Shown piece after piece: positions 24,327 through 56,030 of a DNA stretch of 61,680 bases (within the stretch, counting starts at the first letter, position 1; each line of letters opens with the position of its first letter). The notes under the pieces were generated by a model. It was not told the DNA's origin. It saw nothing but the letters and a program-made list of their open reading frames with translations, and searched no databases. The translations under genes were made by a program, and so were the position numbers. The stretch is taken from positions 1,811 through 63,490 of the forward strand of contig CAYXUL010000004.1 in the NCBI GenBank assembly GCA_964468475.1, read 5' to 3'. Source of the stretch: an uncultured Ignavibacteria bacterium (lineage in GTDB: Bacteria > Zixibacteria > MSB-5A5 > CAIYYT01).

Positions 24327-24390
24327 AACCTAAGGCTGGCACTTTATCGCCGCTTGACAGGCTGCATTTCGTTCCCGATTCTAAAAGCTT

Positions 24391-30016: not shown

Positions 30017-30034
30017 TGAAAGGCAAGCGCGCAA

Positions 30035-33400: not shown

Positions 33401-33416
33401 TAGAAGGAACTCTACG

Positions 33417-34520: not shown

Positions 34521-35364
34521 GCGACCGGGTTGCGTTATCATGATGCTGGCAGGAATGACAATGATGCTTACTGCTGCCTGCAGGCAAGAGGTGGTACCCA
34601 AAGTGGAAGCGTTTAGATTTAGTTTTGGACTAAAATATAGCGTGGTCAGGGATGGGGACTACTGCGCAATTGAGCAGCGCGATATCTGGACCGACTCGCA
34701 GATCGCGCCGCCGGCCGACTTCGACGAAGCGCCGTATATCATGCTGATCAGCAAAAAGGAATGCGCGGCAATCCTGAGTCAGGTAGATGAGATTGACTGG
34801 ACGAAGTATACGGACTTGAGTGATGCTGATTTTGAGACAACGCCACCCGGAATGCAGCATCGCGAGCGACTCTATGTCAAGATTGGCGACGATGTCAAAG
34901 TTGACTGGATCAAGGACTTTCAAAAGCTTCAACCAAGCCTGCGCGAACCACTTGAAGCGACTCAGCAACTCATCGGCAACATAGCGGTCGAGCGTGAAGG
35001 TAAGCTAATACCGCCCGATAGCCTGCAGCTGTCGTTGAGTGTGACGGAGCATGGAACGACGAACAGGTGGAGCGTGACTCGCGAAGGCGGTAAAGATGAA
35101 CTTTCCGCCAATGGCAAGACAGCGGAATTGTCACCCGACAGCTTCAATGATCTCTGGAGTCAAATTCTCGATTTGCGTTTATTCGGTGCTGAGTATGCTC
35201 CCCTCGATTCAACGCAAGAAAAAAATCGAATAGATGAGCTCGCGGTGAATATCAATGGCAAGGAACTGGTCAATTTCAGCTTCAACACACCCTATGAAAA
35301 CCAATCACGGGTCGAGGAACTACACAACCTGTTATCGTTGGCCGCAAAGAATGTGAAGAAATAG
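34507..35364 (+). CDS. hypothetical lipoprotein
   Basis: 285 aa. Lipobox MMLTAAC. It overlaps the previous gene by 14 nt. I recognise no family. Confidence 0.6.
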   Translation: MPLCKRPGCVIMMLAGMTMMLTAACRQEVVPKVEAFRFSFGLKYSVVRDGDYCAIEQRDIWTDSQIAPPADFDEAPYIMLISKKECAAILSQVDEIDWTKYTDLSDADFETTPPGMQHRERLYVKIGDDVKVDWIKDFQKLQPSLREPLEATQQLIGNIAVEREGKLIPPDSLQLSLSVTEHGTTNRWSVTREGGKDELSANGKTAELSPDSFNDLWSQILDLRLFGAEYAPLDSTQEKNRIDELAVNINGKELVNFSFNTPYENQSRVEELHNLLSLAAKNVKK

Positions 35365-35389
35365 CACTAATCAGGATGGAATAGAAGAT

Positions 35390-35815
35390 ATGACGAAAAC
35401 CAACAACAGCTTCAAACTGCAGCTACCGGATGGCTGGGAGGATCGCTCGATCTACACTTTCATGGGCCCGGAAGCTTTCGGCATGCAGCATATGTTGAAT
35501 CTTGTCATCGACGATCAAATCGGTGATCACACACTCGAATCCTTCGCGACGCAACGAGTACAGATGATGAAGGACGCGATGCCGGACGCGACAACCCTCA
35601 AGGAGGGCGAAAGATCACTCGCCAGCGGCATGCCTGTTTACGAGTGGGTGTACAAGACGCATCCCACTGACGACAAAGCTCGCTTCCACAAGACATACTT
35701 CATGATCGTCGGTGGCCGCGGATTCACTTTCAACGCCGTCTTCAGCAAGTCATCGATGAAGACCATCGGCGTGGAAGTGGAAGAGATGGTAAATTCATTT
35801 TTGCCGATGAAGTGA
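35390..35815 (+). CDS. DUF1795/DcrB-superfamily protein (Eag-type effector chaperone-like)
   Basis: 141 aa. The N-terminus FKLQLPDGWEDRSIYTF is the characteristic opening strand pattern of DUF1795 proteins. Size and position at the end of a PAAR island fit this call. Confidence 0.65.
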   Translation: MTKTNNSFKLQLPDGWEDRSIYTFMGPEAFGMQHMLNLVIDDQIGDHTLESFATQRVQMMKDAMPDATTLKEGERSLASGMPVYEWVYKTHPTDDKARFHKTYFMIVGGRGFTFNAVFSKSSMKTIGVEVEEMVNSFLPMK

Positions 35816-35927: not shown

Positions 35928-37157
35928 TCATTTCTTATGACACTGTATGCACAGGTCCATGTCGGGATCAAAGGCTAGATAGTACTCGTGTCCGGAGCCA
36001 TGCATCTTGTGGCAACTGAGGCAGTTCATCGGCTTACCGTTTCTCGGGTCGATTACCTTCTCGCCCATCGGATGTGAATTCTTGTGCGCATCCTCGTGGC
36101 AGGAGTTGCACAGATCGGTCACGTTATCATTAGCTAGGTATCTGGCGTTGTTTGCGCCGTGCGGCGTATGGCAGATTGTGCAATCCTGTCCCGGGTGAGT
36201 GATATATTCCGATTTCTCCTTTGATGGCACATCAGTGAAGTGGCACTTCATGCAGAGGTTCTTCTGGTCAGAACTCAACAGAGTCGAAGCGTTTGACGCG
36301 TGCGGATTGTGACAATTCAGGCACGAGCCGTCCGCCTTCAAATGAAATGAGTACTTGAGATGGCTGCTCTCTTTGATGTCATCGTGACAGCCGTAACAGA
36401 TTTTGTCGACCTCACCGCTAATTGCGAACGAGCCACCGGCGGTAGCGCTCTTCGAATGACAGCTGCCACATTCCCCCGCTTCAAACGGCGGGTGCTGGTT
36501 GGCCATTAGCAATGCGCGATTCTTTGATGAGTGCGGGTCGTGACAGGCAGTGCAGTCAGCTGAGGAGAGATCATAGCCTTTATGAGTCTTCTTAAAGGAT
36601 GCGTCGTTGTCGTGGCAGTCGAAGCAAACCGTCGGCACCGCTTTCTTGAGCAGTCCGGTATACTTTGAGCCGTGCGGGACATGACAGTCTGAACATTCCT
36701 TCGCCTCTACCGGTGGATGCACATTCGCGCGAGCCAGCCACTCTTTCACATTCTCGTGGCAAGATGCGCAGAGTGTTTCCGGTGATTGCTTGAGCACGTG
36801 GTTGAAATCAGAAGCGTGCGGATCGTGACACGAAAGGCACTCACCGTTTGCTACCGGCTGATGTACATTGGCAAGTTCAGTTTGATCCTTTATCTCATCG
36901 TGGCACTGAAAACAAGTTGCCTGAACGCTACTGTTGAGTAATGACGCGTGTCGCGATGCGTGCGGATTGTGACAGTTTGAGCATTCACCAGAGGCGAAAG
37001 CACCGTGCACGTGCTTCTTATTTTGCAGTTCCTGAATATCATCATGGCAGTTATAGCAGACAGCCGGCTGATCAACAGTGACGACTTGCGCGCTACCGAT
37101 ATTAGCGGCGGTCGCGATGAGCCAGAGCGATGCAATAATTAAAATAAAACGTGTCAT
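35928..37157 (-). CDS. multiheme c-type cytochrome, 16 CxxCH motifs (doubled-CxxCH repeat type)
   Basis: 409 aa with a signal peptide. I counted 16 CxxCH. The repeating unit is CxxCHD...VH.P...G.C..CH.PH.S....LL. Confidence 0.95.
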   Translation of the reverse strand: MTRFILIIASLWLIATAANIGSAQVVTVDQPAVCYNCHDDIQELQNKKHVHGAFASGECSNCHNPHASRHASLLNSSVQATCFQCHDEIKDQTELANVHQPVANGECLSCHDPHASDFNHVLKQSPETLCASCHENVKEWLARANVHPPVEAKECSDCHVPHGSKYTGLLKKAVPTVCFDCHDNDASFKKTHKGYDLSSADCTACHDPHSSKNRALLMANQHPPFEAGECGSCHSKSATAGGSFAISGEVDKICYGCHDDIKESSHLKYSFHLKADGSCLNCHNPHASNASTLLSSDQKNLCMKCHFTDVPSKEKSEYITHPGQDCTICHTPHGANNARYLANDNVTDLCNSCHEDAHKNSHPMGEKVIDPRNGKPMNCLSCHKMHGSGHEYYLAFDPDMDLCIQCHKK

Positions 37158-39139
37158 CAGCGATCACCTTCTTTCTTTGCCGGTTCGGTGTGGCAGGCGT
37201 CGCACATCCTCTCAGAGAAAGGTGCGTGGCTGTTGCTGAGCATTAGACCACGATCCTCGGAAGCATGCGGATCGTGGCACTTGCGGCAGTCAATTTGTGA
37301 GCCGGTCAATCCCAGGTGTTTGTCTTTGAAGGCGGAATCATCGCCATCGTGACAGTCGAGGCAGGTTGCCGGAACGTCCTGTATCAGCAGTGAAGCATAT
37401 TCGCTCGAATGGGGCTGGTGACAGGTGCTGCACTCTTCCTCGGCGGGTGGATGCGCCTTATAGTTTGCCATCATCGTGTCAATGTCAACGTGGCAATTAA
37501 GGCAGAGACGTGGCTGTTTATCGAGCAGGAGATTGCCCAGCTTTCCCGAATGAGGCGTATGACATTCGGTGCAATTGCCTTCCTCCACCGGAGCGTGCAT
37601 GCTTGTTGTTGCGGCCGGTTCGACGATGTCATCATGACACGTGCCGCACAGTTCTTTGGGGGTAGCTGTAAGCAGATTTGGCACTTCGCCGGCGTGGACG
37701 ACGTGACAGATATCGCAATTTCTTTCCTTGAAGGGGGGATGCTGAATGATTGCGAGGCTATCGGCGTAGAGATCGCTGTGACATTTTTCGCAGAGATCAT
37801 TCTTTGCCGCGCGTAGCAGTGGAGCCGTCTGTGAAGCGTGCGGATTGTGGCACTCTACACATTGTCCCTGCTTAATCGGCATATGCACGCTCTTCTCGGC
37901 GAGCCAATCCACGCCCTCGTCGTGGCAATCCCCGCAAAGTTCCGACTGGGGCTTCTTGATAAGATTCGCATACTGCGAACCATGTGGTTTATGGCAATCC
38001 GTGCACTCACCGTCAACGAATGGCGGGTGCGTGCTGGGGAAATCCATTGCTTCTGCTTTGTCGTCATGACAGGTGAGGCACAGCTCTTTGCTGTCAGCTA
38101 CCAATAGCATCTTTTTGGCCATGCCATGAGCGTTGTGGCAGGTGCTGCAATCCTCCTCGGCGGGTGCGTGGCGTGATGCCATTACCAGCTCGTCCTGAAC
38201 ATCACTGTGACACTCAAGACAAAGTTGCTTCTCCGGTTCGATCAACAGCGCGTTTTCTTTCGATCCGTGCGGGTTGTGGCAGCTGGTGCAACTGCCCGCC
38301 TCGACTGGTGCGTGGCTACCCTCGGGAGCAACATCAGCCTTGTCGTGGCAGGTCAGACAGAGCGCATCGGCATCATCAGTCAGTTCAAAAGGCGTGGCAG
38401 AGTCGGGCGCATTGTGGCAACTTTCACACTCGCCACCTTCAACGGGCGCGTGTATTGATGCCCGGAACAGGAATTTTGAATCTGATGAGTGCGGCGAATG
38501 GCACTTGCCACAATCCTGATCTTCCAGGGCGTATCCACCGTGCGCCTGCTTGTAGTCGGCTGGTTGATGACAATCGCGGCATAGATCATTAGCAGGCTTC
38601 TTCAGTAAGCCGGCGTATGCACTGCCGTGGACTTCGTGACAGGCAAAGCAGTTGTCCTTCATTGGCTCATGAACAAACTTACCCTCGAATTCCTTGCGAT
38701 CGTGGCAGTCGAAGCATATCTCCGACGCTGTCTTCTTCAGAAGCGCTTCATTATCTGAAGCGTGGGGGTCGTGGCACTTCTCGCAGCGGCCCTGTTTCGC
38801 AGGCGCATGAATGACACTGGCGTCCATGCCCAGTTTGGCCTTATCGTGGCACTCGTAGCAGAGCTGGGCGCCGCTCTCCTTGAGCCGCAGCATTCCTACC
38901 AGTCCATGCGGTTTGTGGCAGGCCACACAGTCTTTGTCGCCGAACGGTTTGTGTTTGTTGGAGCCCGGGAAGTCCTTTACGTCATGACACTCGGTGCAAT
39001 TGCCCTTTGATGAGAAGCGCTTGCCACGTTTGATCTGACCGCTTGCATCCGAAGTAAGGAATATCAGCGTAGCGGCGCAGATGAGCAGCACCAATAGAGG
39101 GAGTGAGTTGCCAACCCATCTGAGCTTACCAGACCACAT
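37157..39139 (-). CDS. multiheme c-type cytochrome, 26 CxxCH motifs (13 tandem diheme units)
   Basis: I counted 26 CxxCH. The start is set at ATG 39139 (MWSGKLRWVGNSLPLLVLLICAATLIF signal/anchor). The stop overlaps the next gene's ATG (TGATG). Confidence 0.95.
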   Translation of the reverse strand: MWSGKLRWVGNSLPLLVLLICAATLIFLTSDASGQIKRGKRFSSKGNCTECHDVKDFPGSNKHKPFGDKDCVACHKPHGLVGMLRLKESGAQLCYECHDKAKLGMDASVIHAPAKQGRCEKCHDPHASDNEALLKKTASEICFDCHDRKEFEGKFVHEPMKDNCFACHEVHGSAYAGLLKKPANDLCRDCHQPADYKQAHGGYALEDQDCGKCHSPHSSDSKFLFRASIHAPVEGGECESCHNAPDSATPFELTDDADALCLTCHDKADVAPEGSHAPVEAGSCTSCHNPHGSKENALLIEPEKQLCLECHSDVQDELVMASRHAPAEEDCSTCHNAHGMAKKMLLVADSKELCLTCHDDKAEAMDFPSTHPPFVDGECTDCHKPHGSQYANLIKKPQSELCGDCHDEGVDWLAEKSVHMPIKQGQCVECHNPHASQTAPLLRAAKNDLCEKCHSDLYADSLAIIQHPPFKERNCDICHVVHAGEVPNLLTATPKELCGTCHDDIVEPAATTSMHAPVEEGNCTECHTPHSGKLGNLLLDKQPRLCLNCHVDIDTMMANYKAHPPAEEECSTCHQPHSSEYASLLIQDVPATCLDCHDGDDSAFKDKHLGLTGSQIDCRKCHDPHASEDRGLMLSNSHAPFSERMCDACHTEPAKKEGDR

Positions 39140-39176
39140 ATCAATATCCTTTCTCACCACTCCCCGAGTCCTTTCC

Positions 39177-40811
39177 CTACCGGCTCTCACCCAGGTAGCG
39201 GTCAATGGCCTTGTCGAAGTAAGTGATCTCAGAGTGATCCTTCAGCACTGCGAGTGCCTTGTCGAGAAGGCTGTTGAATTGGCGTTGAAACATGATCTGC
39301 CGAATTGCGAGTTCGACTTCATCAAGTGACTTGAGTCGGCCCTGCTTCTTGTCAAGCAACCTGAAGATTATCCAGCCATCGGAGGTTGGAAAAGGACGAC
39401 TGGATGCCCCAATTTGCAGGGAGTCGAGATTGTCACGGATTTCCTCCGGAAACGCATTGAGCGTTGTCCAGTCGGTCTTTTCCATCACGCGCGGATCTCC
39501 GGTGACGAAGCGATCAGTCACGTAGTCGAAGTCACTGCCATCCTTAAGCAGTTGATAAGCGCTGTCTGCGCCGGCTTTGTCAGCGATGATGATACTGCGA
39601 AGTTGTAGCTTGCCCGGCTCACGGAAATCATCCTGGTGCTCGTTGTAGTATTTGGTGAATTCATCGCGGTTGAATGTTATCTGCGAGACGACGGTTTCCT
39701 TGAGGTAGATCTCCACCAGGGCGCTATCGCGAGTCTTGTCAAGCGCCGCGACAACTTTCGGGTCATTCTCAAGACCTGCGGCAACCCCTGACTGCAGTAG
39801 CGCCTGCTGTTGCAGCCACTGATCGATTGCTGCAGTCACAAGCGAATCCTTTGGGGCATTGGCGGCGTTCATCGCCAGCCGGGCTGTGGCCAGTCGCAAC
39901 TCGCTGTCAGTGAGCTTGCCGGTCTCACCGATGGTAGCGACGACATCATTGGTACCGATAAGGAATGTTGAATCCAGGACCGCCTCAGCATCAGAAGCAA
40001 TTGCCTTCGCGCGTTCGTTGTTGCGAGTGACTCCCAGTTGCTGCTCCAGGGAATCGACAAACGCCAGCCAATCGGCCTTTTGCTTATTGATTTTAAGCAC
40101 GCTGCGAATGTAGTTTTGCAGAGACGGCAGCTCTGTCTCGTCGGCGGGCGTTACCTGATCTACACGCATGAGCACGTAGGCATCATGGTAGGGAAACGGC
40201 CCGATCAACTGACCTTCTTTGGGGTCAGGCAGGTGAGTCCTCAGTTCATTCTCAATCTCTGCATAGTACATTAAACTGTGCGCGCCGCCCTGATAGCGGT
40301 GCACGTCGACTGAATTGGTCTTTGCGAGACTGTCCATCGGCGCTCCGGCGGCGATCATCTGCCTCAGGGAATCCGCTTTGCTACGGCTCAAAGTCGCAAT
40401 AGTTCTGATCTGAACTTTGAAGTACTTCTTGTCAAAGTAGTCCTTGATCTCGTCGTCGCTGACCTTTTTGTTAAACTTGTAATAGTTTTTCGCAAAACAC
40501 CGCTCGACATTCTTATCGCGTTCCCGCTCCATGAACTTCAGGAACGAGTCTTCGTCGGCCATACCGATAGCATTGGCTTCCTGTATGATGAGCCTGTCAT
40601 TTACGAGCTTATCCACGAGTTTGCGATAGTCAAATTTCATTTTCGAGTTGTTGCTCATAGAATCGTGAATCGTGGAAAAGATATCGTCGACGTCCGTTGT
40701 CGTGATCGAATCGCCGTTGACTACAGCCAGCACCTCCTGCGCCAGCGCTCTGCTACCGTCGACTATGAGCAAACCGAGGAGCAGTGTGAGTAAAATCCTG
40801 AAGCCTTGCAT
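39177..40811 (-). CDS. SurA-like periplasmic chaperone / parvulin-type peptidyl-prolyl isomerase
   Basis: The start is set at ATG 40811 (MQGFRILLTLLLGLLIVDGSRALA). The SurA_N-like opening is VLAVVNGDSITTTDVD. There are two rotamase-like segments (QIRTIATLSRSKADSL..., LQLRSIIIADKAGADSAYQLLKDGSDF). Confidence 0.75.
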   Translation of the reverse strand: MQGFRILLTLLLGLLIVDGSRALAQEVLAVVNGDSITTTDVDDIFSTIHDSMSNNSKMKFDYRKLVDKLVNDRLIIQEANAIGMADEDSFLKFMERERDKNVERCFAKNYYKFNKKVSDDEIKDYFDKKYFKVQIRTIATLSRSKADSLRQMIAAGAPMDSLAKTNSVDVHRYQGGAHSLMYYAEIENELRTHLPDPKEGQLIGPFPYHDAYVLMRVDQVTPADETELPSLQNYIRSVLKINKQKADWLAFVDSLEQQLGVTRNNERAKAIASDAEAVLDSTFLIGTNDVVATIGETGKLTDSELRLATARLAMNAANAPKDSLVTAAIDQWLQQQALLQSGVAAGLENDPKVVAALDKTRDSALVEIYLKETVVSQITFNRDEFTKYYNEHQDDFREPGKLQLRSIIIADKAGADSAYQLLKDGSDFDYVTDRFVTGDPRVMEKTDWTTLNAFPEEIRDNLDSLQIGASSRPFPTSDGWIIFRLLDKKQGRLKSLDEVELAIRQIMFQRQFNSLLDKALAVLKDHSEITYFDKAIDRYLGESR

Positions 40812-40815
40812 TAAT

Positions 40816-41946
40816 CTACCTCTGCACCGTTTCGTGTTGAATAGTCTTGTTGCTGGAGACTCCCGTGCGCCGTTCCCGCACGAGCCGCTTCCACATCGTC
40901 TCCACCAGTGATTGCGTTGTCCTGCCGATTGAATATTCTCTCCCCGAGCCGAACAGGGCGTTGACCGTGGCGCCGTTTCGCTGGTCGTTGACAGCAGAGA
41001 GTACAACTCCGCTCTGGGGGTCGGTGAGACGCAGACTCAAGCCGACTACCGGCCCCGCCTGGGAAACTCGGCCCCGTAACGGCAAGAACTCAAAAACTGT
41101 GCCGCTCACCAAAGCAGTGACATTCAGGCTGTCCGACAGTTCTTTCATGCCAACCTCGGTTGCCGATCCTATATAGAGCTGCCGGCTGCGGGTCAAAATG
41201 CGAGTCACATCACCGGGCTCAGCGACCGGGTATCCCAGCTGCCATACCTCGGCAAGTAGCAGATCTGATACCACGTCGCCCGCGGTCAGATAAAGTGTCG
41301 AATGATCGCAGGGGATTACCGCGAGCTTGCCGCTCTGCAGCAGCTTTCTGGCCTGCTTGCTGACTTTCGGCACTTTGAAGTTTGAGCCGGCGAAATGAGA
41401 ATCAAAATCCTTCATCAGCTCCCGAATTACTCTCGATGTTACTTTGCTCATTGAAGACGTCTCACCAATCCCCAGAAGCCCGCCGTAATCTTCTCCCGCT
41501 GCCGAGACGCACTTGGCCCAAACGACTTCCAGGGAGCGGCAGTCGTAGACCCTCAGGCAGAGTGACAATTCGGGTAGCTCTCCCGGTTGGTAGATTTCGA
41601 TTGCGCCGGTGACAACGAATCTGACACCGAGCCCTTGATTCAGTTCAGACGCTGCCACGGAGTTAACCACTCCCACGAGTCGCAGCCTATTCGAGCGCAT
41701 GAAGTCTCTGAGTGAATCACCGGTAATTAGATTACAGCGTTGCTCCAACTCGGACTTCACCGCGGATTCAACCGAATCGCGGGCTTCATTGAATTCGCTG
41801 TAGTTGGCCAACGGCACCAGCGCAAACCTTGTGGCAGCACTCTCAATTGTTGCTTTGGCCCCGGGGGCAAAAACAAGAATAAATAGAGCACATATCATCA
41901 AGATTGCGCTGTAGTCTCTTAGCATTGTTCTTGTGTCGTCAGCCAT
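40816..41946 (-). CDS. periplasmic/OM-associated protein with two tandem CsgG/LpoB/TolB-N-like domains
   Basis: 376 aa with an N-terminal hydrophobic anchor. Two repeats follow the pattern (F/L)A(L/V)(V/I)P...(spacing)...(V/A)L(V/I).G(T/A)(V/I), matching the neighbouring lipoprotein. Confidence 0.55.
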   Translation of the reverse strand: MADDTRTMLRDYSAILMICALFILVFAPGAKATIESAATRFALVPLANYSEFNEARDSVESAVKSELEQRCNLITGDSLRDFMRSNRLRLVGVVNSVAASELNQGLGVRFVVTGAIEIYQPGELPELSLCLRVYDCRSLEVVWAKCVSAAGEDYGGLLGIGETSSMSKVTSRVIRELMKDFDSHFAGSNFKVPKVSKQARKLLQSGKLAVIPCDHSTLYLTAGDVVSDLLLAEVWQLGYPVAEPGDVTRILTRSRQLYIGSATEVGMKELSDSLNVTALVSGTVFEFLPLRGRVSQAGPVVGLSLRLTDPQSGVVLSAVNDQRNGATVNALFGSGREYSIGRTTQSLVETMWKRLVRERRTGVSSNKTIQHETVQR

Positions 41947-41961
41947 CTTTTGACTTCAGTC

Positions 41962-42585
41962 TCAGTCGATTAGTGTATCGATAGTTTTGCGCACGCAACG
42001 TCGCGCAACTTCGCTATAGGAGCGCTGTTCCGTTCCGAAGAGCGATGACAAAAACGTGCGACTGCCCTCAGTGTCGGTAGCCGACCACACGATTTGTCCT
42101 TCCTCAGTCTCCATCATGCGGACATCGAGAGTTACAACTGTGGCCGGGCCGCCACTCGAGCGATTATTGGTCGACTCATTGACAGTGCCGATAATAAGTG
42201 CCTGCACGCCCAGCGTCTTACCCAGTTCCTTAATCTGATCCACCGTGAGCAGGTCTTTGCGCGGCAGCGTATATTTTCCCAGCGCCTTGATTACTTCTCC
42301 CGGCTCCACAATGTCGAATGCTTCCGCTGCCAGCAACTCTGTCATAAACAAGTGCGTCAGTCGTGGTCCTGCGCCTTGATCATTGGAAAGATTTTCAAAC
42401 GGAACTATCGCGACCCGTTCTACATAGGCGAAATTGTAATCCCGGTTCAGGAACACTGTTGGTTTGACTGTCGAGCAGCCGGAGAGCAAAAGTGCAAAAA
42501 GAACAGCAAGCGAGATGACTGCCGGGAGAGTCGCGTGAACAGTCTTCGCGGTAAGTCGGAGTTGATTCTTAGTAGTGTATTTCAT
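41962..42585 (-). CDS. lipoprotein, DUF799/LpoB/CsgG-like fold suspected
   Basis: Lipobox LLSGC. VAIVPFENLSNDQGAG ... LGVQALIIGTVNE ... VTLDVRMMETEEGQIVWSA is the pattern shared by CsgG, LpoB, PelC-like and TolB-N-like ring lipoproteins. Confidence 0.65.
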   Translation of the reverse strand: MKYTTKNQLRLTAKTVHATLPAVISLAVLFALLLSGCSTVKPTVFLNRDYNFAYVERVAIVPFENLSNDQGAGPRLTHLFMTELLAAEAFDIVEPGEVIKALGKYTLPRKDLLTVDQIKELGKTLGVQALIIGTVNESTNNRSSGGPATVVTLDVRMMETEEGQIVWSATDTEGSRTFLSSLFGTEQRSYSEVARRCVRKTIDTLID

Positions 42586-44696
42586 TAGAATCCCGTCCTG
42601 ATTCCGATCCTGAAGGACATCGTTGAAACTCCACCGGTGCCGGTAAGATCATTTTCTTGAACTGTACCGGTAAGCGTGGTACGACGCGTCAGGCTATAGT
42701 CAATTTGCGCTCCGTAACGCTCAGTACGAGAACCGGCATCGAAACTAAGCAGATAGGCGCTGGCGCTGGTGCTGACTTTTGGAGTCATGCGCCAGGTGAA
42801 GATAAAGTTCTGTGTCAGGCTGCGAACCAGAGCGTCCTCGATACTGTTGATATTGCCGCGCAGTTGCATATTTTCGCTGATCATGTAGGTGAACCCCAGC
42901 AGGTACTCTTTTCTGACGATCAGTCCCACTTCGTTCTCAGTGGTCTCACGGTAGCGATAGCTGGCCTGGCCTTCAAGCCACTGAGTCAGGCTGCCGATCA
43001 GGTAGGCCCGATATGACCAGCTATCCAGCTGTCGCGCGACCTGATTCAGCCTCGTTCGATTCAGTCCCACTTCCTGATTTAACTTCAGTTGAGGAAATAG
43101 ATCCGCACCCGCTCTTACAAAAGCGTTGTAGAACTCTTCCGACCGGAAACTGCTGATATAGTTGGCTCTGGCGTACGCTGAAGCCGTCAAATCGAGAGTT
43201 CTGATCGGAAGATACTCAAGCGAGTACCCTCCCGAGGTCGAGCGGTTTACTTCGATCATTGTGTTCTTGATATCGAGGAGGGCGAGCTCGCCTTGAATGG
43301 TCTGATGAAGATTGTCACTGATCTTATGACGAATGGATGAATTGAAGTAAGCCTCCCTGCGTCCCGGATCCTGCGCATTGCCCGGCTCGTCCCGAAGTGT
43401 GACATTTACATTGGACGACAGGTTACTTGAAAGGTGCACGGTGTTAGTAAGATCGATTTCATGGAAGAAGTTGTCGAGGGACAACTTGCTGGTTTGATTC
43501 ACATGCACAAATGCCTGCATTTCGGTTACAAACACCGAGTCGCTCAAATTGAAGCCGCTATTGACTACCTTGATGTAGCGTGTGGTAGTCTTATCGAATG
43601 AGATTTCATAGCGACTGAAACCGGGGCTGAAAACCGACTGGGCCCTACCCTGGCTTTGCCAGAACACGGCATCCTCCGAAGTAAATACCGTCCAGGCTAC
43701 CGAGTTGTCCGAAGGGACATCTGTGTAGATGTAGAGCATGTCGACGTCGCGCGCCGAACCAAGATCGGCGCCAATATTCCAGCCAGTGTTCCCGTCGCCG
43801 ATATTTATCGGCGGTACCGTTTCGCTGGTAACATCGCCGTCTGCCAAAGCGAGCACCGTATCAAGACCACCGGTCTCAGGCGACTCGTCACGAGCCGCCA
43901 GCCCGGCGAAAATCGGGATTTCACGTGGGATCGAGCCACCTGTCAGGTTCTCGTCCGTCTGTACCCGATAGTCGCCTCGGTAGCTAATCGACGACCGTAC
44001 GCTGCCGCCAATCCAGTTGAGTGATTGCTGTAACCGCAGTGAGTGATGCGTTGTCGAGCTGCGCAACTCGCGGGACCAGTCATCGGTTACGCGTCGTTTG
44101 AATGAATATTGGACCGAGGATCGCAGGGAATTATAGCCCGTCCCCAGTTCCAGAATTTGATCGCGGGTATCACGGTCGCTGCGATCTACCTGATTGTATC
44201 TTTTCTCATACCCCAAGTTGGCCTTCACATAGGGATAATTGGGAACCTGCGACTTGATTGTAACGCTGGCGATTTGCGTAACCAGTTCGATGCTTCGGTC
44301 GTTACTCTTGGTTTCCTGGTACTGACCGAGGCCGGTAACGGAAAAGGCCCGCTGCCGCCAATAGGCTTCAACGCTGGGCTGCAATTCAGAACGCCAGTTG
44401 TTTGGCCCGTCGCTCTGAGTAACGCCCACGTTGTAGTAGCGCAAGGAGGTGCGTCCCAGCAGATTCTTGCTGAATTGTTGCTGCCAGCCCAGCACGTACT
44501 CCTGGTCGAGATTCTCTCGTTTCTGGACATCGGTTTCTGACTGAAAGAAGCCGACTCGCAGCCGTCCCGATAGATTCTGTGAAATCCGTGCTTGTACTGA
44601 ACCGGCAAGAAGGAGGGTGACCGCGAAAGCGGATATGGCAGTGGTAGGCAGTCCCGTCCAAACCTTCTGTCGTTTTACTCGTTTCAATTCTCTCAA
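42585..44696 (-). CDS. large outer-membrane beta-barrel protein with an inserted F5/8-type-C (discoidin)-like domain
   Basis: 703 aa with a TTG start and a signal peptide ending in SVQA. Amphipathic beta-strand periodicity at both ends. C-terminus is ...FRIGIRTGF (terminal Phe). The central insert is residues ~255-398. The stop overlaps the next ATG (TAATG). Confidence 0.8.
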   Translation of the reverse strand: MRELKRVKRQKVWTGLPTTAISAFAVTLLLAGSVQARISQNLSGRLRVGFFQSETDVQKRENLDQEYVLGWQQQFSKNLLGRTSLRYYNVGVTQSDGPNNWRSELQPSVEAYWRQRAFSVTGLGQYQETKSNDRSIELVTQIASVTIKSQVPNYPYVKANLGYEKRYNQVDRSDRDTRDQILELGTGYNSLRSSVQYSFKRRVTDDWSRELRSSTTHHSLRLQQSLNWIGGSVRSSISYRGDYRVQTDENLTGGSIPREIPIFAGLAARDESPETGGLDTVLALADGDVTSETVPPINIGDGNTGWNIGADLGSARDVDMLYIYTDVPSDNSVAWTVFTSEDAVFWQSQGRAQSVFSPGFSRYEISFDKTTTRYIKVVNSGFNLSDSVFVTEMQAFVHVNQTSKLSLDNFFHEIDLTNTVHLSSNLSSNVNVTLRDEPGNAQDPGRREAYFNSSIRHKISDNLHQTIQGELALLDIKNTMIEVNRSTSGGYSLEYLPIRTLDLTASAYARANYISSFRSEEFYNAFVRAGADLFPQLKLNQEVGLNRTRLNQVARQLDSWSYRAYLIGSLTQWLEGQASYRYRETTENEVGLIVRKEYLLGFTYMISENMQLRGNINSIEDALVRSLTQNFIFTWRMTPKVSTSASAYLLSFDAGSRTERYGAQIDYSLTRRTTLTGTVQENDLTGTGGVSTMSFRIGIRTGF

Positions 44697-44712
44697 AAGT
44701 CTCCACTTAACA

Positions 44713-44742
44713 GGGCACCCGACCCGACTGGGTCGGGCGCCT
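44713..44742 (-). other. GC-rich intercistronic stem-loop immediately downstream of the omcS-like gene
   Basis: GGGCACCCGACCC-gact-GGGTCGGGCGCC(T). An 8-bp perfect core is extended by 3-4 bp after one mismatch. It sits in the 111-nt gap before the barrel gene and has no clear U-tract. Confidence 0.5.
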
Positions 44743-44807
44743 GTTTGTGCCCTAAAACGATTTCAAGGTCAGAAGGGCTATAAGATTCGGTAACTTCGGC
44801 TCAGCCG

Positions 44808-45863
44808 TTAGAACGGCATCTCGTCGCCGGCATCCTTCACGTGGCACTTGTTGCACAGTGAGCGCTGGTTCGGGTTGTTGTATGGATCCGGGATCGCATA
44901 CGAACCGGACTCAACTCCATCCTCGTCGAGGAAGGTGACATTCATATCCCAACGGGTAGCGTCGGGAGCTGATGTCGCGTGTGCACGGTGACAGGTGATG
45001 CAGGAAACCTGGCTGCTAGCCGTCGGTCCGGCGGTAGACGTAGTCGTATTGGCCGGGTCTTCAAACGGAACCTCTGCAAGATACGCCGTAGCCTGAGTCC
45101 CACCGGTCTGGTCCACAGTGCCGTTGTACAGGTTATAAGCATTGGCAATAGTGCCGCCTATAGTCACACCGGACGGGTGGATCAGCTTGGTGCCGTTGTT
45201 GTGGAAGTCGCCGTGGCAGTTTCCGCACCACGCACTCATACCACCTTTGTAGGCGGTGTGGCTGGTCTGGCTCTCCGAACCGGAGTTAATGCTGATTCCC
45301 TCGGCATCGGGAGCCGCATTGGTGAAGGAATACAGGCCGTCCTGAACCGAGGCAATGCCATAAAGCAGACGGAAATTGGTGTTTCCGTGCGGGTCGTGGC
45401 AACTGGTGCACTCAAGGTTGGCAGCCGGGAAGGTACCCCCCGGAGCCGTAGTCAGTGTACCATCGGGGCCGGAACCCATGCTGGGAGCGTTGACATTATG
45501 GCCGGCAAAGGAACCTGGAATAGGATTGCTTGCTCCGGCATGGCCGTCGTTAATGTTGTCTTCAGAAAGAAAGACAAAATTACCGCCACCCTTCTCCGGG
45601 GGCGGAGCCAGCGGGTCAGCTCCCCACACGGCACCATGACTGGTGGCATGGCAGGAGAGACACACGTCGGAAGCAGAAGCATACTTCAGCAAATAAGCAT
45701 TGCCGTTCGGGTTAGACGCATCCACTAATGCGCCGTCTTGGCTGTTGTGCATCGTATGACAGCCGCTGCAGTGGGCTACGCCGGCATCGTGGAACCCCAT
45801 CGCTACGCCGCTGAAGAGAATCGGTAGCGAGAGAGCTACTGCGATGATTAGAAGCTTACGCAT
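44808..45863 (-). CDS. omcS: OmcS-family hexaheme c-type cytochrome (candidate filament/nanowire subunit)
   Basis: 351 aa with 6 CxxCH. Blocks are collinear with my recollection of G. sulfurreducens OmcS. These are G|FHDAGVAHCSGCHTMHNS (OmcS FHSGGVAECEGCHTMHNS), TLTTAPGGTFPAANLECTSCHDPHG (OmcS TLTTAPGGTFPANQLHCSSCHDPHG), GMSAWCGNCHGDFHN, GTQATAYLAEVPFED, VSCITCHRAHAT and QRSLCNKCHVKD. Confidence 0.8.
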   Translation of the reverse strand: MRKLLIIAVALSLPILFSGVAMGFHDAGVAHCSGCHTMHNSQDGALVDASNPNGNAYLLKYASASDVCLSCHATSHGAVWGADPLAPPPEKGGGNFVFLSEDNINDGHAGASNPIPGSFAGHNVNAPSMGSGPDGTLTTAPGGTFPAANLECTSCHDPHGNTNFRLLYGIASVQDGLYSFTNAAPDAEGISINSGSESQTSHTAYKGGMSAWCGNCHGDFHNNGTKLIHPSGVTIGGTIANAYNLYNGTVDQTGGTQATAYLAEVPFEDPANTTTSTAGPTASSQVSCITCHRAHATSAPDATRWDMNVTFLDEDGVESGSYAIPDPYNNPNQRSLCNKCHVKDAGDEMPF

Positions 45864-45925
45864 AGTTAAAAAACCTCCGAGATTTACTCACTTAAAAGAG
45901 CTAGAATAAAAGGGGTTAAGCTTGG

Positions 45926-47002
45926 TTAGCGCATCACCTCCTTTGCAGAATTTTCTGGCAGTTGTGGTGGAAGAGAACTTTGAACAGGTCCATTTTCTGA
46001 GGTGCTATCCGGCCCATTCTCCAGCGAATCAAGCCGCTGCCTGATGAAATCCGGTAAGTCACAAACCTGAACGCGATTCATGAAGCGCTGCGAAATATAC
46101 AAACGCCCTTGGTTATCATGATCAATATAGGCAGGATGGTAAAAATCCCCCGGTTTCACTCCCATACCGCCGAACTCGCCCAGGAACTGCCCATTGGTTG
46201 AATAACACACTACTGCAAATCGATGTTTGTCCAGAACGGCAGCGATCTTGTGGTCAATGATCGTTACGTCGCTGGGGAAATTCAGCTCACCCGCCAGGTT
46301 TCCCCGTATTCCGAACGCCCGCACAAACTGGCCGCCTACGTCGTAGACGTAAACCTGTCCGAGCATCGGCGCCGGAAGGTAGAGGTGGTTGCCATCAATC
46401 TCGGGCTGTCCCAATATGGATTCCCTCCTTGACTTCTCGGTCAGGTCTCCCAGGACAGCAAATTGAGATTGGAATTTCCCTTCGGTATTGATCACGACAA
46501 CACTGAGATCAGCCCCGTTGACAACATAGATCAAATCGTTTTCTGAAATATTCATGGAAAGCGGCGCAAACCGGAAGCCCTCCGGAGTGTCGGAGAGTTC
46601 CAGCTGACCCAGCAGAAGTCCGTCATAGTCTACTTTGAAAATATGTGCGCCATCGGCCGTTGTACCGAGAACATAGATGTACCCGCGTGAATCAACTACC
46701 ACCGAGCCCACGTTGCGAAAGACATCTTTGCCGCCAAATTCGAACAGGTAAACACCGGCAGTATCTAAAACAACGACACGATTATTGCCCGGATCTGTCA
46801 CAAAGACTTCGCCGGCGCGCCGGTCAATAAATACATTCTCAGGCCTCAGGAAACCGTTGCCGGCCCCCGGCATCTCCAGCAAGCGCACGAATTCGGTCCT
46901 CACCGACAGGTCATCCCTGCTCTGTGCAAAGCTGGGGGCCGAACAGACAGTAACTGCCAAAAGCAAGGCAGCCACCGAAATGGACAAAGAATCGAGGTCC
47001 AT
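45926..47002 (-). CDS. NHL-repeat beta-propeller protein, secreted
   Basis: The start is set at ATG 47002 (MDLDSLSISVAALLLAVTVCSAPSFAQ). It has repeated NHL-type blades (VFVTDPGNNRVVVLDTAGVYLFEFG, IYVLGT..., LYISQRFMNRVQV). Confidence 0.8.
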   Translation of the reverse strand: MDLDSLSISVAALLLAVTVCSAPSFAQSRDDLSVRTEFVRLLEMPGAGNGFLRPENVFIDRRAGEVFVTDPGNNRVVVLDTAGVYLFEFGGKDVFRNVGSVVVDSRGYIYVLGTTADGAHIFKVDYDGLLLGQLELSDTPEGFRFAPLSMNISENDLIYVVNGADLSVVVINTEGKFQSQFAVLGDLTEKSRRESILGQPEIDGNHLYLPAPMLGQVYVYDVGGQFVRAFGIRGNLAGELNFPSDVTIIDHKIAAVLDKHRFAVVCYSTNGQFLGEFGGMGVKPGDFYHPAYIDHDNQGRLYISQRFMNRVQVCDLPDFIRQRLDSLENGPDSTSENGPVQSSLPPQLPENSAKEVMR

Positions 47003-47094
47003 CCGTGGGCAGAACTTCCGTTGTGTATGATTACTAAGCCAACCCATGCTGTCTGTTAAAAAGTCCTCAAGCGAAACCACCTATTCGCTTTACA

Positions 47095-47112
47095 TAGTGA
47101 ATTGATTCACAA
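47095..47112. promoter_or_regulatory. Rex/CRP-type palindromic operator candidate, TAGTGAA-TTGA-TTCACAA
   Basis: It matches TTGTGAA-N4-TTCACAA at 13 of the 14 arm positions. It lies ~100 nt upstream of ATG 47002 and 95 bp (centre to centre) from the other site. Confidence 0.5.
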
Positions 47113-47189
47113 GGAAAGTTCAAAAAAACAGCAGAACGCCCTAAAAAACTAATCTATAAAGGCTAACGTGGAAATCGCCACCTAACTCG

Positions 47190-47207
47190 TTGTGATTTTT
47201 TTCACAT
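47190..47207. promoter_or_regulatory. Rex/CRP-type palindromic operator candidate, TTGTGAT-TTTT-TTCACAT
   Basis: The core TGTGA-N6-TCACA is perfect (47191-47206). It lies ~196 nt upstream of the NHL/omcS-like operon start (47002, minus strand). Confidence 0.55.
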
Positions 47208-47447
47208 GAGCAGGTAAAGCTTGAGCTGCAAGGCGAGACTATTTTGTACAATGAACTAACCCTGAAATCGACTTATATTCGTTCGGCGATATGATAGACA
47301 ATTAGCTCGGGAAAGCAAGCGAAAAAAAGTACCTTTTTGTATCTTTTTTGGAATTCTGCTTTAATCAGGAATGATTTGTCCCTGTAATTTGCGAAGTTTC
47401 AAGCGCTTCTGTTTTGAAGTCAGGGCGTGTGGAGAGCTGATGAGTCG

Positions 47448-48284
47448 CTACCGACTCGACATTGCGAAGCCGTCCGAGCCATCGTGCCCCATATCGTGGC
47501 AGTCGGTACAAAGGCCTGCTTGAATGCCTTTGCTGAGGAGATACTTCTCTCCTGAAATCAGTGAGTGACACGTTTGGCACTCGATTTTGCCGTCGATCGT
47601 CACGACAGTGCTGGGGATCTGGTCGCGCAGCTTCAGCGTCGAGCCCGGCTTGCGATAGCCAGGGATCAGCTCGATCGAAAATGGGTGAGTTGCTGACACG
47701 TGAAAGCGTGGAAAATCCTCAAGTTGACTGGCATGAGCAGGAAGTCGACCGTCACGATTGTGGCAGGAAAGGCAGAATTCTGACGGGTTTGCTGCAAAAT
47801 TGCCTGTCGTGTCGCTATGGATAATCTCCGCGGCCAGCCTGTGTCCGGGACTGACTTCAGGAGAACTGGAATCACGGTGACAATCGAGACAAATGTCGAC
47901 ACCGCGAATCGCTACCGCAAGCGCTCCGGTGGTCTCGCCGATAACCAGTTTCTCCGGATGATGGAACGAATGGCAGGTCAAACAATTAGCGTTTGCGCCG
48001 GAGTGAAATGGTCCGGATTTTCCCTCGGTCAGGTTGCTGGTCTGGTGACAGCTCAGGCAATCCCTGCTGCTGGGCATGGCACTGAGGTCATCAGCACTCC
48101 CGGACATGCTGGCCTTGCTGGCCTGCATTCGGTGACAGGTACGGCACTCGACAGCGTTGTGCGCAGGAACCGGATTTTCTTCCGCGTCGCCTTCCGGCAG
48201 CCCCCAACCAAAATAGAGAAGCCCGATCATCAAGATCAGAACCGCAGCAGCAACCAGGGAACGAGAATCAAGCTGTAGGCGCAT
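47448..48284 (-). CDS. membrane-anchored heptaheme c-type cytochrome
   Basis: 278 aa. N-terminal TM is SLVAAAVLILMIGLLYFGWGL. I counted 7 CxxCH. Confidence 0.9.
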   Translation of the reverse strand: MRLQLDSRSLVAAAVLILMIGLLYFGWGLPEGDAEENPVPAHNAVECRTCHRMQASKASMSGSADDLSAMPSSRDCLSCHQTSNLTEGKSGPFHSGANANCLTCHSFHHPEKLVIGETTGALAVAIRGVDICLDCHRDSSSPEVSPGHRLAAEIIHSDTTGNFAANPSEFCLSCHNRDGRLPAHASQLEDFPRFHVSATHPFSIELIPGYRKPGSTLKLRDQIPSTVVTIDGKIECQTCHSLISGEKYLLSKGIQAGLCTDCHDMGHDGSDGFAMSSR

Positions 48285-48477: not shown

Positions 48478-49200
48478 CTATGATTGGTCGCGATCACTTT
48501 CCTGAGCCCCTTCCGGTACGAACTTATATCCGGCTCCCCGCATCGTGAGAATGTACCTGGGGTTGGCAGGGTCGGGTTCGAAAATCTTGCGCAGCCGCAG
48601 GATGAAATTATCAATCGTGCGGGTAGAGGGATAAACATGATACCCCCAGACAGCATCGAGAATCATATCGCGTGAGACGACTTCATTCTCGTGCTCCGAG
48701 AGAAACTTCATCGTCATACATTCCTTCTGCGACAGCTCGGTCTCCCCGCTGGGTCCAACCGCCTGGTAGGTCTTGAAATCCACCCAATTATCGGCAAAGA
48801 CATAGCGCGACTCATCTTTCTCCACCGTGCTGTACCACACTTGTCGTCTGAATATCGCTGCCACCCGCAGCAGCAGTTCCTGCAGATCAAACGGCTTGGT
48901 GAGATAGTCATCGCCGCCGGAAAGGAAGCCTTCAACGCGATCCGATTGCCGATCGCGCGCTGTCAGGAAGAGAATCGGTATTCTTCCGCCGGCTTTACGA
49001 ATTTGGCGGCACACTTCCAGGCCGTCTTTGCCGGGAATCATGATATCCAGGATGATCAAATCGAATTGACCGTCACGATACATTTGCAGCGCTGCGTTAC
49101 CGTCAGTGGCAACCCCAACATCATATCCTTCCGCCTCAAGATTCAATACTAAACCCTCGGCGATATGTTCTTCGTCCTCAACTACCAGAATCTTCTTCAT
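48478..49200 (-). CDS. OmpR/PhoB-family response regulator
   Basis: The start is set at ATG 49200 (MKKILVVEDEEHIAEGL). Receiver Asp is in LIILDIMIPGKDG. The winged-helix end is MRGAGYKFVP. Confidence 0.9.
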   Translation of the reverse strand: MKKILVVEDEEHIAEGLVLNLEAEGYDVGVATDGNAALQMYRDGQFDLIILDIMIPGKDGLEVCRQIRKAGGRIPILFLTARDRQSDRVEGFLSGGDDYLTKPFDLQELLLRVAAIFRRQVWYSTVEKDESRYVFADNWVDFKTYQAVGPSGETELSQKECMTMKFLSEHENEVVSRDMILDAVWGYHVYPSTRTIDNFILRLRKIFEPDPANPRYILTMRGAGYKFVPEGAQESDRDQS

Positions 49201-49225
49201 GTTGTTCTCACAAGTCCTCAGCCGG

Positions 49226-50509
49226 CTAAGCGGCGTTCTCACTCGGCAGTTTAATCACGAAAGTAGTTCCTTTATCTTGCCCCTCCGATTCGATCATCAC
49301 GCTACCCCCATGCTCCCGCACAATCTGCTTGACGAGGAACAAACCGATCCCGGTACCCTTTACCGAACGAGTCTTTTCCTCACCGGTCCGATAGAAGCGT
49401 TCGAACACTTGCTCCTGCTCATGCCGAGCAATACCAACGCCATTGTCGCTGAACCGCAACTCACAGCCGGAATTGGCTCGCTGCAGAGACACTGACAAGC
49501 TCCTGCGTCCCGGTGGAGAATATTTGATGGCATTATCCGCCAGCGCTGTAACTACCCGGCGCAGGGCGTGGTAATCTGTTTTCGCATATATATCGGGTTC
49601 GATGGCTGTAGTCAACTTCAGATCGTACCTTTGAAACATCGGTTTCAGTTCGTCGAGATACTCCTGAAGGTCGGCGCTTAGGTTGGTGCGTACACGTTTC
49701 ATCTTTCGCGACTGCTGGCTCAACCGACCCGCTTCCAGCACGTTGTCAACCAGTCCCTCGAGTCGCTGACAATCTTCAACCATCTTGGGAATGAAAGTCT
49801 TTGATTTCTCTTCAGGAACCCGACCACTCGAAAGCGTTTCCAGGTAAAGTTTGATTGAGGCCACCGGTATCTTCAGCTCATGCGTCACCGCCTGGATGAA
49901 ATTCTCCTGTTGCTGCTTCATTCGCTCGGTCTGTCTCAGAGCGCGGAAAATCATAAATGCGCCCAGCAGCATCAGCAACACGAAGAAGGAACCTTCGGAT
50001 GCAAACATTATTACGTGCCGGTGTGCCTCATCTTCCAGCTTACCGAGTACTTTGGGCCGGAGTTTCAAATCCTGCGGGCTAAACGGGTCATCTTTCAGCT
50101 CACCTCTCAACGCAGATTCATTAACTGCGAGGTCCGGCGCAAACCGCTCAAGCAGGGTCGCTGGATAGTCCCGATCCAGCCACACCAGCGCACTGCCGCC
50201 ATCGATAGTGTTGACATGCAGATACCAGGTCGTGTCGATTTTGCCCACATTCCAGACAACCTCCCCCTCCTTATTCATTACCGTGGCGCCGAGCACCGGG
50301 CGATGAAGCGATTCAGATGACAAATTGGAGGTTCGCAGCCGATCCTGACCGGCGAGATACACAGAATATGTGGGGCGTAGCTCATTGTATTCCTGGTTCA
50401 GGTGGAAGGCTGTGATAGCCGCTGTTTGGCCGGCCTGCTGCTTGTGGAGTTTGAGCTGCTCTTCAGCGGAGTTCACCTGAAAATAAATCCACCACGAAAT
50501 CTGCCCCAT
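49226..50509 (-). CDS. sensor histidine kinase (HisKA + HATPase_c) with a periplasmic sensor domain
   Basis: H-box AVTHELKIPVASI, N-box DNAIKYSP and G-box GTGIGLFLVKQIV. The first TM helix appears to start upstream of the first ATG (see findings). Confidence 0.9.
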   Translation of the reverse strand: MGQISWWIYFQVNSAEEQLKLHKQQAGQTAAITAFHLNQEYNELRPTYSVYLAGQDRLRTSNLSSESLHRPVLGATVMNKEGEVVWNVGKIDTTWYLHVNTIDGGSALVWLDRDYPATLLERFAPDLAVNESALRGELKDDPFSPQDLKLRPKVLGKLEDEAHRHVIMFASEGSFFVLLMLLGAFMIFRALRQTERMKQQQENFIQAVTHELKIPVASIKLYLETLSSGRVPEEKSKTFIPKMVEDCQRLEGLVDNVLEAGRLSQQSRKMKRVRTNLSADLQEYLDELKPMFQRYDLKLTTAIEPDIYAKTDYHALRRVVTALADNAIKYSPPGRRSLSVSLQRANSGCELRFSDNGVGIARHEQEQVFERFYRTGEEKTRSVKGTGIGLFLVKQIVREHGGSVMIESEGQDKGTTFVIKLPSENAA

Positions 50510-53827: not shown

Positions 53828-53873
53828 AGTACTCGCTATCCGTTGGAACTATTTTGGAATCGAGGTGAGCATA

Positions 53874-56019: not shown

Positions 56020-56030
56020 GGTGCGCAAAC

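Follow-up and report, generated by a model that had tools for sequence, protein, structure and literature searches.

Which system is encoded by nine co-directional minus-strand genes in a stretch of 61.7 kb from an uncultured bacterium (contig CAYXUL010000004.1), in which an OmcS-like hexaheme cytochrome lies next to a large outer-membrane barrel, PelC-like proteins, a chaperone and multiheme cytochromes? The whole 61.7-kb stretch is called the window hereafter, and all coordinates of its features refer to it. An initial annotation, made from the letters alone, had proposed a machine devoted to exporting, assembling and anchoring a cytochrome polymer and wired to periplasmic heme 'cables', with the caveat that part of the module might be conserved among the companions of omcS in Geobacter. 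With a probability of about 0.8, the region represents an osc-type (omcS-companion) cluster that combines an OmcS-family subunit with proteins dedicated to its biogenesis and wiring. Such a system has been described before, and the module is conserved rather than of a new kind: the same gene order is present in Geobacteraceae and in other phyla, as the caveat had anticipated, and the proposed machine corresponds to the one put forward for the osc cluster of Geobacter sulfurreducens (GSU2494–GSU2505), which is attributed to Shen et al. 2025 (Cell Chem Biol 32:239; via PMC13194489 and bioRxiv 10.1101/2025.10.22.684050). Our argument is based on homology, architecture, synteny and ligand conservation; the functional steps that we attach to it would follow from the published work on Geobacter.

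The gene at 44808..45863 (minus strand) encodes the hexaheme cytochrome, an OmcS-family protein and the presumed filament subunit. A phmmer search against the PDB retrieved the OmcS structures 6ef8 and 6nef with an end-to-end collinear alignment (E=4.1e-43), so that the relationship to OmcS that had been suspected initially holds over the full length of the protein. The predicted mature N-terminus FHDAGVAHCSGCHTMHNS (FHDAGVAHC) aligns to OmcS residue 1, and the N-terminal motif FHxxGVAxCxGCHTMHNS is common to OmcS and the window subunit, which is about 34–36% identical to homologues of the OmcS clade. In an alignment of 101 sequences, comprising the subunit, 99 six-heme homologues and OmcS, the six CxxCH motifs and another six histidines show little or no variation. 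The distal histidines H2, H16, H110, H147, H257 and H335 of OmcS correspond to H25, H39, H122, H159, H229 and H295 of the window subunit; all 12 axial histidines are thus kept, and the protein therefore possesses the full ligand set for six bis-His hemes. In the OmcS filament, His16 of one subunit is reported to ligate heme 5 of its neighbour (2019 structure papers of 6EF8 and 6NEF). The conservation of its equivalent (His39 of the precursor) and of the CHTMHNS motif is compatible with polymerisation, but it is no proof of it.

The subunit is at the same time the most conserved protein of the cluster. A comparison of the window with the loci L078 to L102, in which all values stem from the same contigs, revealed identities of 60–85% for the subunit versus 24–65% for the barrel, 25–57% for the two-domain PelC-like protein and 22–59% for the chaperone. 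This difference argues for a strong constraint on the subunit rather than for a recent transfer of the whole cluster, and such a high conservation would fit a tightly packed polymer.

The genomic linkage between the subunit and its companions was examined in both directions. A forward scan of one genome per species with OmcS residues 200–367 as query yielded 77 OmcS-anchored loci from Geomonas, Geomobilimonas, Citrifermentans, Anaeromyxobacter, Nitrospirota and other lineages. Iterative jackhmmer searches with the window proteins detected homologues of the barrel (E) in 46 of these loci, of the PelC-like proteins (F/G) in 48, of the peptidyl-prolyl isomerase (PPIase; H) in 37 and of the NHL propeller in 59. 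At least one of E, F, G and H is present in 49 of the 77 loci and the full set D-E-F-G-H, including a propeller (D), in 27; the companion-less loci are mostly short contigs or orphan paralogues. The usual order is propeller, subunit (sometimes doubled), second propeller, barrel, F, G, PPIase, 26-heme and 16-heme cytochrome. The reverse scan, a search of metagenomes with the barrel alignment, provided 23 barrel-anchored loci, and wherever more than 2 kb is available upstream of the barrel (15 loci), an OmcS-like hexaheme gene is located just 5' of it; the remaining eight loci end at the barrel or shortly before it. The neighbourhood comparison that had been suggested with the initial annotation has thus established a tight linkage of barrel, PelC-like and PPIase genes with omcS-type genes both ways.

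The closest relatives of the window subunit are found in metagenome-assembled genomes (MAGs) labelled Zixibacteria, Acidobacteria, Gemmatimonadota and Eisenbacteria, and the host itself most probably belongs to the Zixibacteria or to a lineage close by. One example is locus L078, whose subunit is 85% identical and whose gene order is the same throughout, including the histidine kinase, the response regulator and the heptaheme cytochrome upstream. Three further loci (L079, L080, L081) carry the module with small variations, and MAGs of Acidobacteria, Gemmatimonadota and Zixibacteria share its order. Altogether, the order of the cluster is conserved next to OmcS homologues in Geobacteraceae, Anaeromyxobacter, Nitrospirota, Acidobacteriota, Gemmatimonadota and Zixibacteria, and its recurrence in several phyla, at dozens of loci that are independent of each other, indicates that it is not due to chance.

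All nine open reading frames (ORFs) of the window cluster were recovered at the coordinates and in the order given by the initial annotation. The recount of CxxCH motifs reproduced its total of 55, with 16 in the gene at 35928–37157, 26 at 37157–39139/39205, six at 44808–45863 and seven at 47448–48284; the motif count for the other five cluster genes is zero. The gene products of L078, the closest relative, match the sizes of the window products that result from starts at 47002 for the NHL protein, at 40811 for the PPIase (544 aa) and at 39139 for the 26-heme cytochrome (660 aa), thus supporting the chosen start codons. With these starts the previously reported junctions of 62 nt, 111 nt, a 1-nt overlap, 15 nt, 4 nt, 37 nt and a 1-nt overlap were reproduced exactly. 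Scans for promoters and terminators found neither class of site to be commoner than in shuffled sequence.

The comparison with G. sulfurreducens relates the genes from the barrel to the 16-heme cytochrome to named counterparts. According to PMC13194489, the osc operon includes omcS, omcT and oscC (GSU2501), OscH is assigned to nanowire folding, OscE, OscF and OscG to secretion and OscD to morphology, and oscI (GSU2495) and oscJ (GSU2494) encode periplasmic cytochromes. The supplement of the same source lists 473 aa for OscD, 701 for OscE, 169 for OscF, 367 for OscG, 548 for OscH, 627 for OscI and 372 for OscJ. The window proteins measure 703 aa (E), 170 aa after lipoprotein cleavage (F), 376 aa (G), 544 aa (H), 660 aa (26-heme cytochrome) and 409 aa (16-heme cytochrome). 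The sizes from E to J are hence alike in both clusters, and the order is the same, namely subunit, barrel, lipoprotein, its paralogue, PPIase, 26-heme and approximately 16-heme cytochrome.

The OscE-type gene (42585..44696, minus strand) encodes the protein of 703 aa that had been annotated as a large outer-membrane barrel, and it has no Pfam or NCBIfam match of its own. Its AlphaFold2 (AF2) model, which is based on 14 homologues and has a mean predicted local distance difference test (pLDDT) score of 85.5, sustains this assignment with a predicted β-barrel of about 28 strands. An all-β jelly-roll insert of about 140 residues (positions 256–397) splits the long strands of the model into 11 and 17. 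Nine of the 14 relatives match the Pfam family F5_F8_type_C_2 (galactose-binding/discoidin) and five match Porin_4. Of the 61 invariant columns in the barrel-family alignment, 35 fall within the discoidin/CBM32-like insert; the similarity to distant relatives is concentrated in it, and it is the sole part that plain BLAST aligns with the barrels of Geobacterales. The insert is probably central to the function of the barrel protein, and the strand parity of the model would place it on the extracellular side.

Searches for solved relatives of the barrel were less specific. Foldseek retrieved generic large barrels only, with MtrB (6r2q_B) as the top match at a weak TM-score (TMq 0.39, TMt 0.42) and TonB-dependent receptors at about 0.3, and the barrel profile gave only marginal matches to CBM32 and galactose-oxidase entries among the PDB sequences (E 0.18–1.5). 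Word-index protein searches provided just 14 relatives of the barrel and seven of the OscG-type protein because both diverge fast. The exhaustive profile search expanded the barrel family to 1021 representative clusters at 50% identity, nearly all of about 700 aa. The profile of the window clade also matched the ORFs at the E position end to end in Geomobilimonas (9.5e-47), Geomonas (2e-38) and Citrifermentans (2e-13). Large β-barrels are described for most OmcE and OmcS regions by Petersen et al. (bioRxiv 10.1101/2025.10.22.684050), who also present a porin-like mounting model.

Two PelC-like proteins are encoded downstream of the barrel. The OscF-type gene (41962..42585, minus strand) specifies an outer-membrane lipoprotein of 207 aa with an LSGC lipobox, whose Cys37 is invariant in 14 homologues. 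In the comparison with the PDB, its family profile matched PelC (9h80_C, E=1e-9; 5t11, E=1.8e-7), followed by GNA1162 and LpoB; the deposited entry 5t11 contains 12 chains, and 5t10 and 5t0z are the other PelC entries among the matches of the F and G profiles. The OscG-type gene (40816..41946, minus strand) encodes a protein with two tandem PelC-like domains, whose family profile matches PelC (9h80_C) with E=4.4e-14. Probabilities of 98.8% for the N-terminal and 99.6% for the C-terminal domain against F and of 99.6% between both domains were obtained with hhalign. A lipobox is present in some OscG-type homologues (L022, L056, L037, L068), which come from Geomonas, Citrifermentans and MAGs; the canonical form is absent from the window clade, whose proteins carry a signal peptide only, and the window protein may therefore not be a lipoprotein.

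The pair of ring lipoproteins in the initial annotation holds with a refinement. F stands as a lipoprotein of the PelC/LpoB/CsgG class and G as its two-domain paralogue, the latter without a canonical lipobox. The Pfam matches of F to CsgG and LpoB are sub-threshold (CsgG 20.5 bits versus a cut-off of 20.8). A reading as a curli CsgG channel was rejected because of this sub-threshold score, the absence of CsgG from the PDB profile matches and the lack of CsgE, CsgF, CsgA and CsgB homologues. By analogy with PelC, the location of the two genes beside a barrel suggests a periplasmic ring or funnel under the porin.

The OscH-type gene (39177..40811, minus strand) encodes a periplasmic PPIase chaperone of 544 aa. 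Pfam identified SurA_N together with the parvulin domains Rotamase_2, Rotamase and Rotamase_3, and Cbf2 (Cbf2/PEB4; E=8.5e-10), SurA and PrsA are its matches in the PDB, which agrees with the SurA/parvulin chaperone of the initial annotation. The two cytochrome genes at the distal end encode an OscI-type 26-heme protein (37157..39139, minus strand) and an OscJ-type 16-heme protein (35928..37157, minus strand), both periplasmic, in which Pfam recognised 13 and eight Paired_CXXCH_1 stretches, respectively; the former thus consists of 13 paired-CxxCH units. The 26-heme cytochrome scores 316 bits across six stretches on the DmsE/MtrA-family decaheme model and is 34–45% identical to its equivalents in the loci of Geobacterales, Anaeromyxobacter and Nitrospirota. 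Its gene has the same position in most loci, and the 16-heme gene follows it in L031, L051, L062, L073, L078–L080, L082, L090, L092 and others.

At the opposite end of the cluster, the gene at 47448..48284 (minus strand) encodes a heptaheme c-type cytochrome with c7/c3/NapC-NirT-like matches in Pfam. Its N-terminus, LVAAAVLILMIGLLYFGW, contains a single hydrophobic anchor without an obvious cleavage site, and the membrane-anchored heptaheme protein initially placed upstream of the module is thereby corroborated. A c7 gene occupies the equivalent position in L078, L081, L082, L087, L089 and L093. The protein is the probable inner-membrane-tethered entry point of electrons.

The NHL protein between the heptaheme and the subunit gene (45926..47002, minus strand) is a six-bladed β-propeller of the upstream type of omcS clusters. 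It matches NHL-repeat structures of the PDB with E=4e-22, in accordance with its original assignment, and DUF5128 in Pfam. The protein is orthologous to the propeller of about 320 aa that is encoded 5' of omcS homologues (23–27% identity, E down to 6e-23), and not to the OscD-size propeller of about 475 aa. The gap of 111 nt 3' of the subunit gene harbors a GC-rich stem-loop of 16 bp (44709..44745, minus strand) with a minimum free energy of −47.4 kcal/mol (z=−3.5). Equally strong hairpins directly 3' of the subunit gene were found in L078 (11054–11178), L080 (11051–11200), L081 (11066–11187) and the Geomobilimonas locus L017 (10607–10756). The z values of the post-subunit hairpins range from −3.2 to −6.0, and the position is shared between distant phyla while the sequences differ. 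Speculatively, the hairpin might serve as an intra-operon attenuator or as an mRNA stabiliser that raises the output of the subunit relative to the machinery.

A two-component system lies directly 5' of the heptaheme gene (48478–50509), consisting of an OmpR-type response regulator (Response_reg and Trans_reg_C; 48478..49242, minus strand) and a histidine kinase (HisKA and HATPase_c; 49226..50509, minus strand), which is a candidate sensor of the cluster. The same arrangement is present in L078, and the pair is a likely dedicated regulator of the cluster. In L081 a gene with Response_reg and Trans_reg_C domains, cut by the end of the locus, is situated about 7 kb 5' of the heptaheme gene. The same locus, which stems from a Zixibacteria HGW MAG, contains six heme-biosynthesis genes immediately 5' of the cluster (L081:641–7331; GluTR, porphobilinogen deaminase, HEM4, aminotransferase, URO-D and HemN-like), a neighborhood that fits the large heme demand of the cluster.

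The plus strand of the window contributes three further groups of genes. Located 5.6 kb from the cluster (53865–57170), the first encodes a Tat-signal 4Fe-4S protein (Fer4_11, NrfC), an NrfD-type membrane subunit and a 13-heme c3-type cytochrome; a plausible role is that of a quinol:periplasmic-cytochrome oxidoreductase, which would feed the cluster and link it to the quinol pool. The second (28910–35815) comprises genes for a PAAR-domain protein of 368 aa, a protein of 1121 aa with a weak OmpA-like match, a BamB/PQQ-like protein, a protein of 285 aa of unknown function and a DcrB-like protein, the last of which borders the cluster in L078 too. The third (21073–26216) is unrelated to the cluster and includes an ORF at 21073–21690, a Ser/Thr kinase of 857 aa (Pfam Pkinase and TPR) and, judging by its translated N-terminus, a possible second kinase-like ORF.

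The co-occurrence of a large barrel with multiheme cytochromes raises the question of whether the region encodes an Mtr/Pcc-type conduit instead, in which the barrel would sheathe a multiheme cytochrome such as the 26-heme protein and would not be the export channel of the OmcS-like protein, which would act as a terminal reductase or oxidase at the surface. The co-transcription of barrel and cytochrome genes, the position of MtrB at the top of the TM-scores and the MtrA-like units that are reflected in the DmsE-family score of the 26-heme cytochrome all speak for this scenario. But a TM-score of about 0.4 is weak, MtrB and PccB-type porins share no similarity with the barrel in sequence, Mtr/Pcc modules include neither PelC-like proteins nor a SurA-like chaperone, and the barrel is tied to an OmcS-like gene in every informative locus (15/15). 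PMC13194489 moreover assigns OscE, OscF and OscG to the secretion of OmcS in Geobacter. We consider such a conduit unlikely, and a sheathing role of the barrel is compatible with a role in OmcS export. The initial statement that the non-heme genes do not resemble the classic Mtr/Pcc systems accordingly stands for the PelC-like proteins, the chaperone and the missing sequence homology to MtrB, but it needs qualification for the fold of the barrel, whose best, albeit weak, match is MtrB itself.

An export system for a Pel-type exopolysaccharide or another polymer, formed by barrel, PelC-like ring and galactose-binding domain with the cytochrome genes as mere neighbors, is suggested by PelC, the nearest relative of F and G with a solved structure, and by the resemblance of the insert to discoidin/CBM32 domains. 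Glycosyltransferase, PelB-type tetratricopeptide repeat (TPR), Wza and Wzx/Wzy genes are missing from the cluster and its flanks, the CsgG match stays below the Pfam threshold, and the linkage with omcS-type genes extends across phyla in both directions. We therefore rejected export of a Pel polysaccharide on account of the missing synthesis genes and the strict linkage to omcS-type genes, and regard polymer export of this type as extremely improbable. The same osc-type machinery might also be used in reverse or in another way, either for the uptake of electrons from Fe(II) or partner cells or for a non-filamentous layer of surface cytochromes. The direction of electron flow is not fixed by the sequence, and OscD, which is tied to filament morphology in Geobacter, is missing from the window. 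But all heme ligands are kept, including the equivalent of the inter-subunit His16, and the conservation of the subunit far above that of the barrel is as expected for a tightly packed polymer; we regard this alternative as quite improbable.

The assignment to an osc-type cluster that forms OmcS-like filaments thus remains the preferred explanation, and the following points weigh against it. With 328 mature residues against the 407 of OmcS, the window subunit is shorter by about 80 residues; the loops near OmcS residues 152–199 and 368–392 are largely deleted in it, and its AF2 model (32 homologues) is unusable at a pLDDT of 38. Filament formation in the host is putative and presumed from homology, and electron flow could be reduction or uptake. 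No OscD-size propeller was found in the whole window by tblastn with four OscD-position proteins (E<1e-3); the gap between subunit and barrel genes, the usual site of OscD, comprises only the 111 nt of the hairpin region, and such a propeller is present in other members of the window clade (L081, L085, L092, L094). The best match in the scan with residues 200–367 of G. sulfurreducens OmcS had 69% identity, and the comparison with the Osc proteins is thus one of sizes and of other Geobacteraceae. The functional roles of the window genes would be those that the citing papers ascribe to the Geobacter osc genes, and the stoichiometry of an F/G ring as well as its contact with the barrel are suggested by the likeness to PelC. 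Finally, slide 5 of the supplement of PMC13194489 tabulates OscE of G. sulfurreducens with 75.7% helix and 1% sheet, which contradicts both the barrel of our model and the one that Petersen et al. describe; we suspect a labelling slip or a swap of columns.

If the cluster operates like its Geobacter counterpart, the subunit would be exported by the Sec system and would acquire its six hemes in the periplasm, where the OscH-type parvulin chaperone may aid its folding or keep it assembly-competent. The OscE-type barrel of about 28 strands would provide both the passage through the outer membrane and the mounting point, and the OscF-type and OscG-type proteins would reside below it, where they would probably form a ring or funnel in the periplasm like that of PelC under PelB. 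Polymerisation would take place at or beyond the barrel, with His39 of the precursor ligating heme 5 of the next subunit and thereby generating a continuous chain of hemes. The membrane-tethered heptaheme protein and the OscI/J-type 26-heme and 16-heme cytochromes would move electrons between the inner membrane and the base of the filament. The NHL propeller, the post-subunit hairpin and the upstream two-component system may modulate assembly and expression.

A more far-reaching proposal is that window-type clusters, with genes for the heptaheme protein, the NHL propeller, the subunit, the barrel, F, G, the PPIase and the 26-heme and 16-heme cytochromes, represent the minimal core of a distinct class of outer-membrane fibre secretion, in which a PelC-like ring would sit under a barrel of about 28 strands and the most conserved part of this barrel, a discoidin-like domain with a predicted extracellular location, would nucleate or clamp the OmcS-type polymer in its folded and heme-loaded state, with OscD being dispensable and with ring, clamp and hairpin being universal and not yet described for Geobacter; we put this forward tentatively and rate it as rather doubtful. 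The osc-type assignment by itself extends a complete module for OmcS nanowire biogenesis, which has so far been studied genetically only in Geobacter, to uncultured members of the Fibrobacteres–Chlorobi–Bacteroidetes (FCB) group and neighboring phyla (Zixibacteria, Gemmatimonadota, Acidobacteriota). These phyla are common in sediments and the subsurface, and their clusters support a wide role of cytochrome nanowires in the cycling of iron and in the transfer of electrons between species. With one subunit and no OscD, the window provides a compact, minimal gene set for heterologous reconstitution. The PelC homology of the OscF/G-type proteins and the conserved discoidin-like insert sharpen structural hypotheses on the passage of a folded heme protein through the outer membrane or its mounting there.

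A comparison with known systems places the window cluster between several partial equivalents and one close counterpart. With PelB–PelC of Pseudomonas (9H80, 5T11) it shares homologues of PelC, i.e. F and both domains of G (E=1e-9 to 4e-14), encoded beside an outer-membrane barrel. PelB, however, combines TPR with a porin of 16 strands, whereas the window barrel has about 28 strands, a discoidin-like insert and no TPR; the Pel cargo is a polysaccharide with its own synthesis genes, whereas the window cargo is a heme protein and Pel synthesis genes are absent. The MtrCAB/Pcc systems likewise co-encode a large barrel, the top fold match being MtrB, with periplasmic multiheme cytochromes. They differ in the lack of sequence homology between the barrels, in the additional PelC-like proteins and chaperone of the window and in the surface cytochrome, which is of the OmcS rather than the MtrC/OmcA type. 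Subunit, large β-barrel, β-propeller lipoproteins and multiheme cytochromes are found together in the omcE clusters of Desulfuromonas soudanensis and Geobacter (bioRxiv 10.1101/2025.10.22.684050), but the subunit OmcE is a tetraheme protein that is unrelated to OmcS in sequence, and the minimal omcE cluster as listed in this source includes neither PelC-like genes nor a PPIase.

The close counterpart is the osc cluster of G. sulfurreducens, which also has an NHL propeller upstream. In contrast to the window, which has no second propeller of this size, it includes OscD (473 aa), and the single subunit gene of the window is without the paralogues OmcT and OscC. Compared with the Geobacter-type clusters, the OscG-type protein of the window has no canonical lipobox, and the window clade is distinguished by the conserved heptaheme gene and the histidine kinase/response regulator pair upstream. 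The host of the window cluster finally lies outside the Desulfuromonadia, and its nearest named relatives are Zixibacteria.

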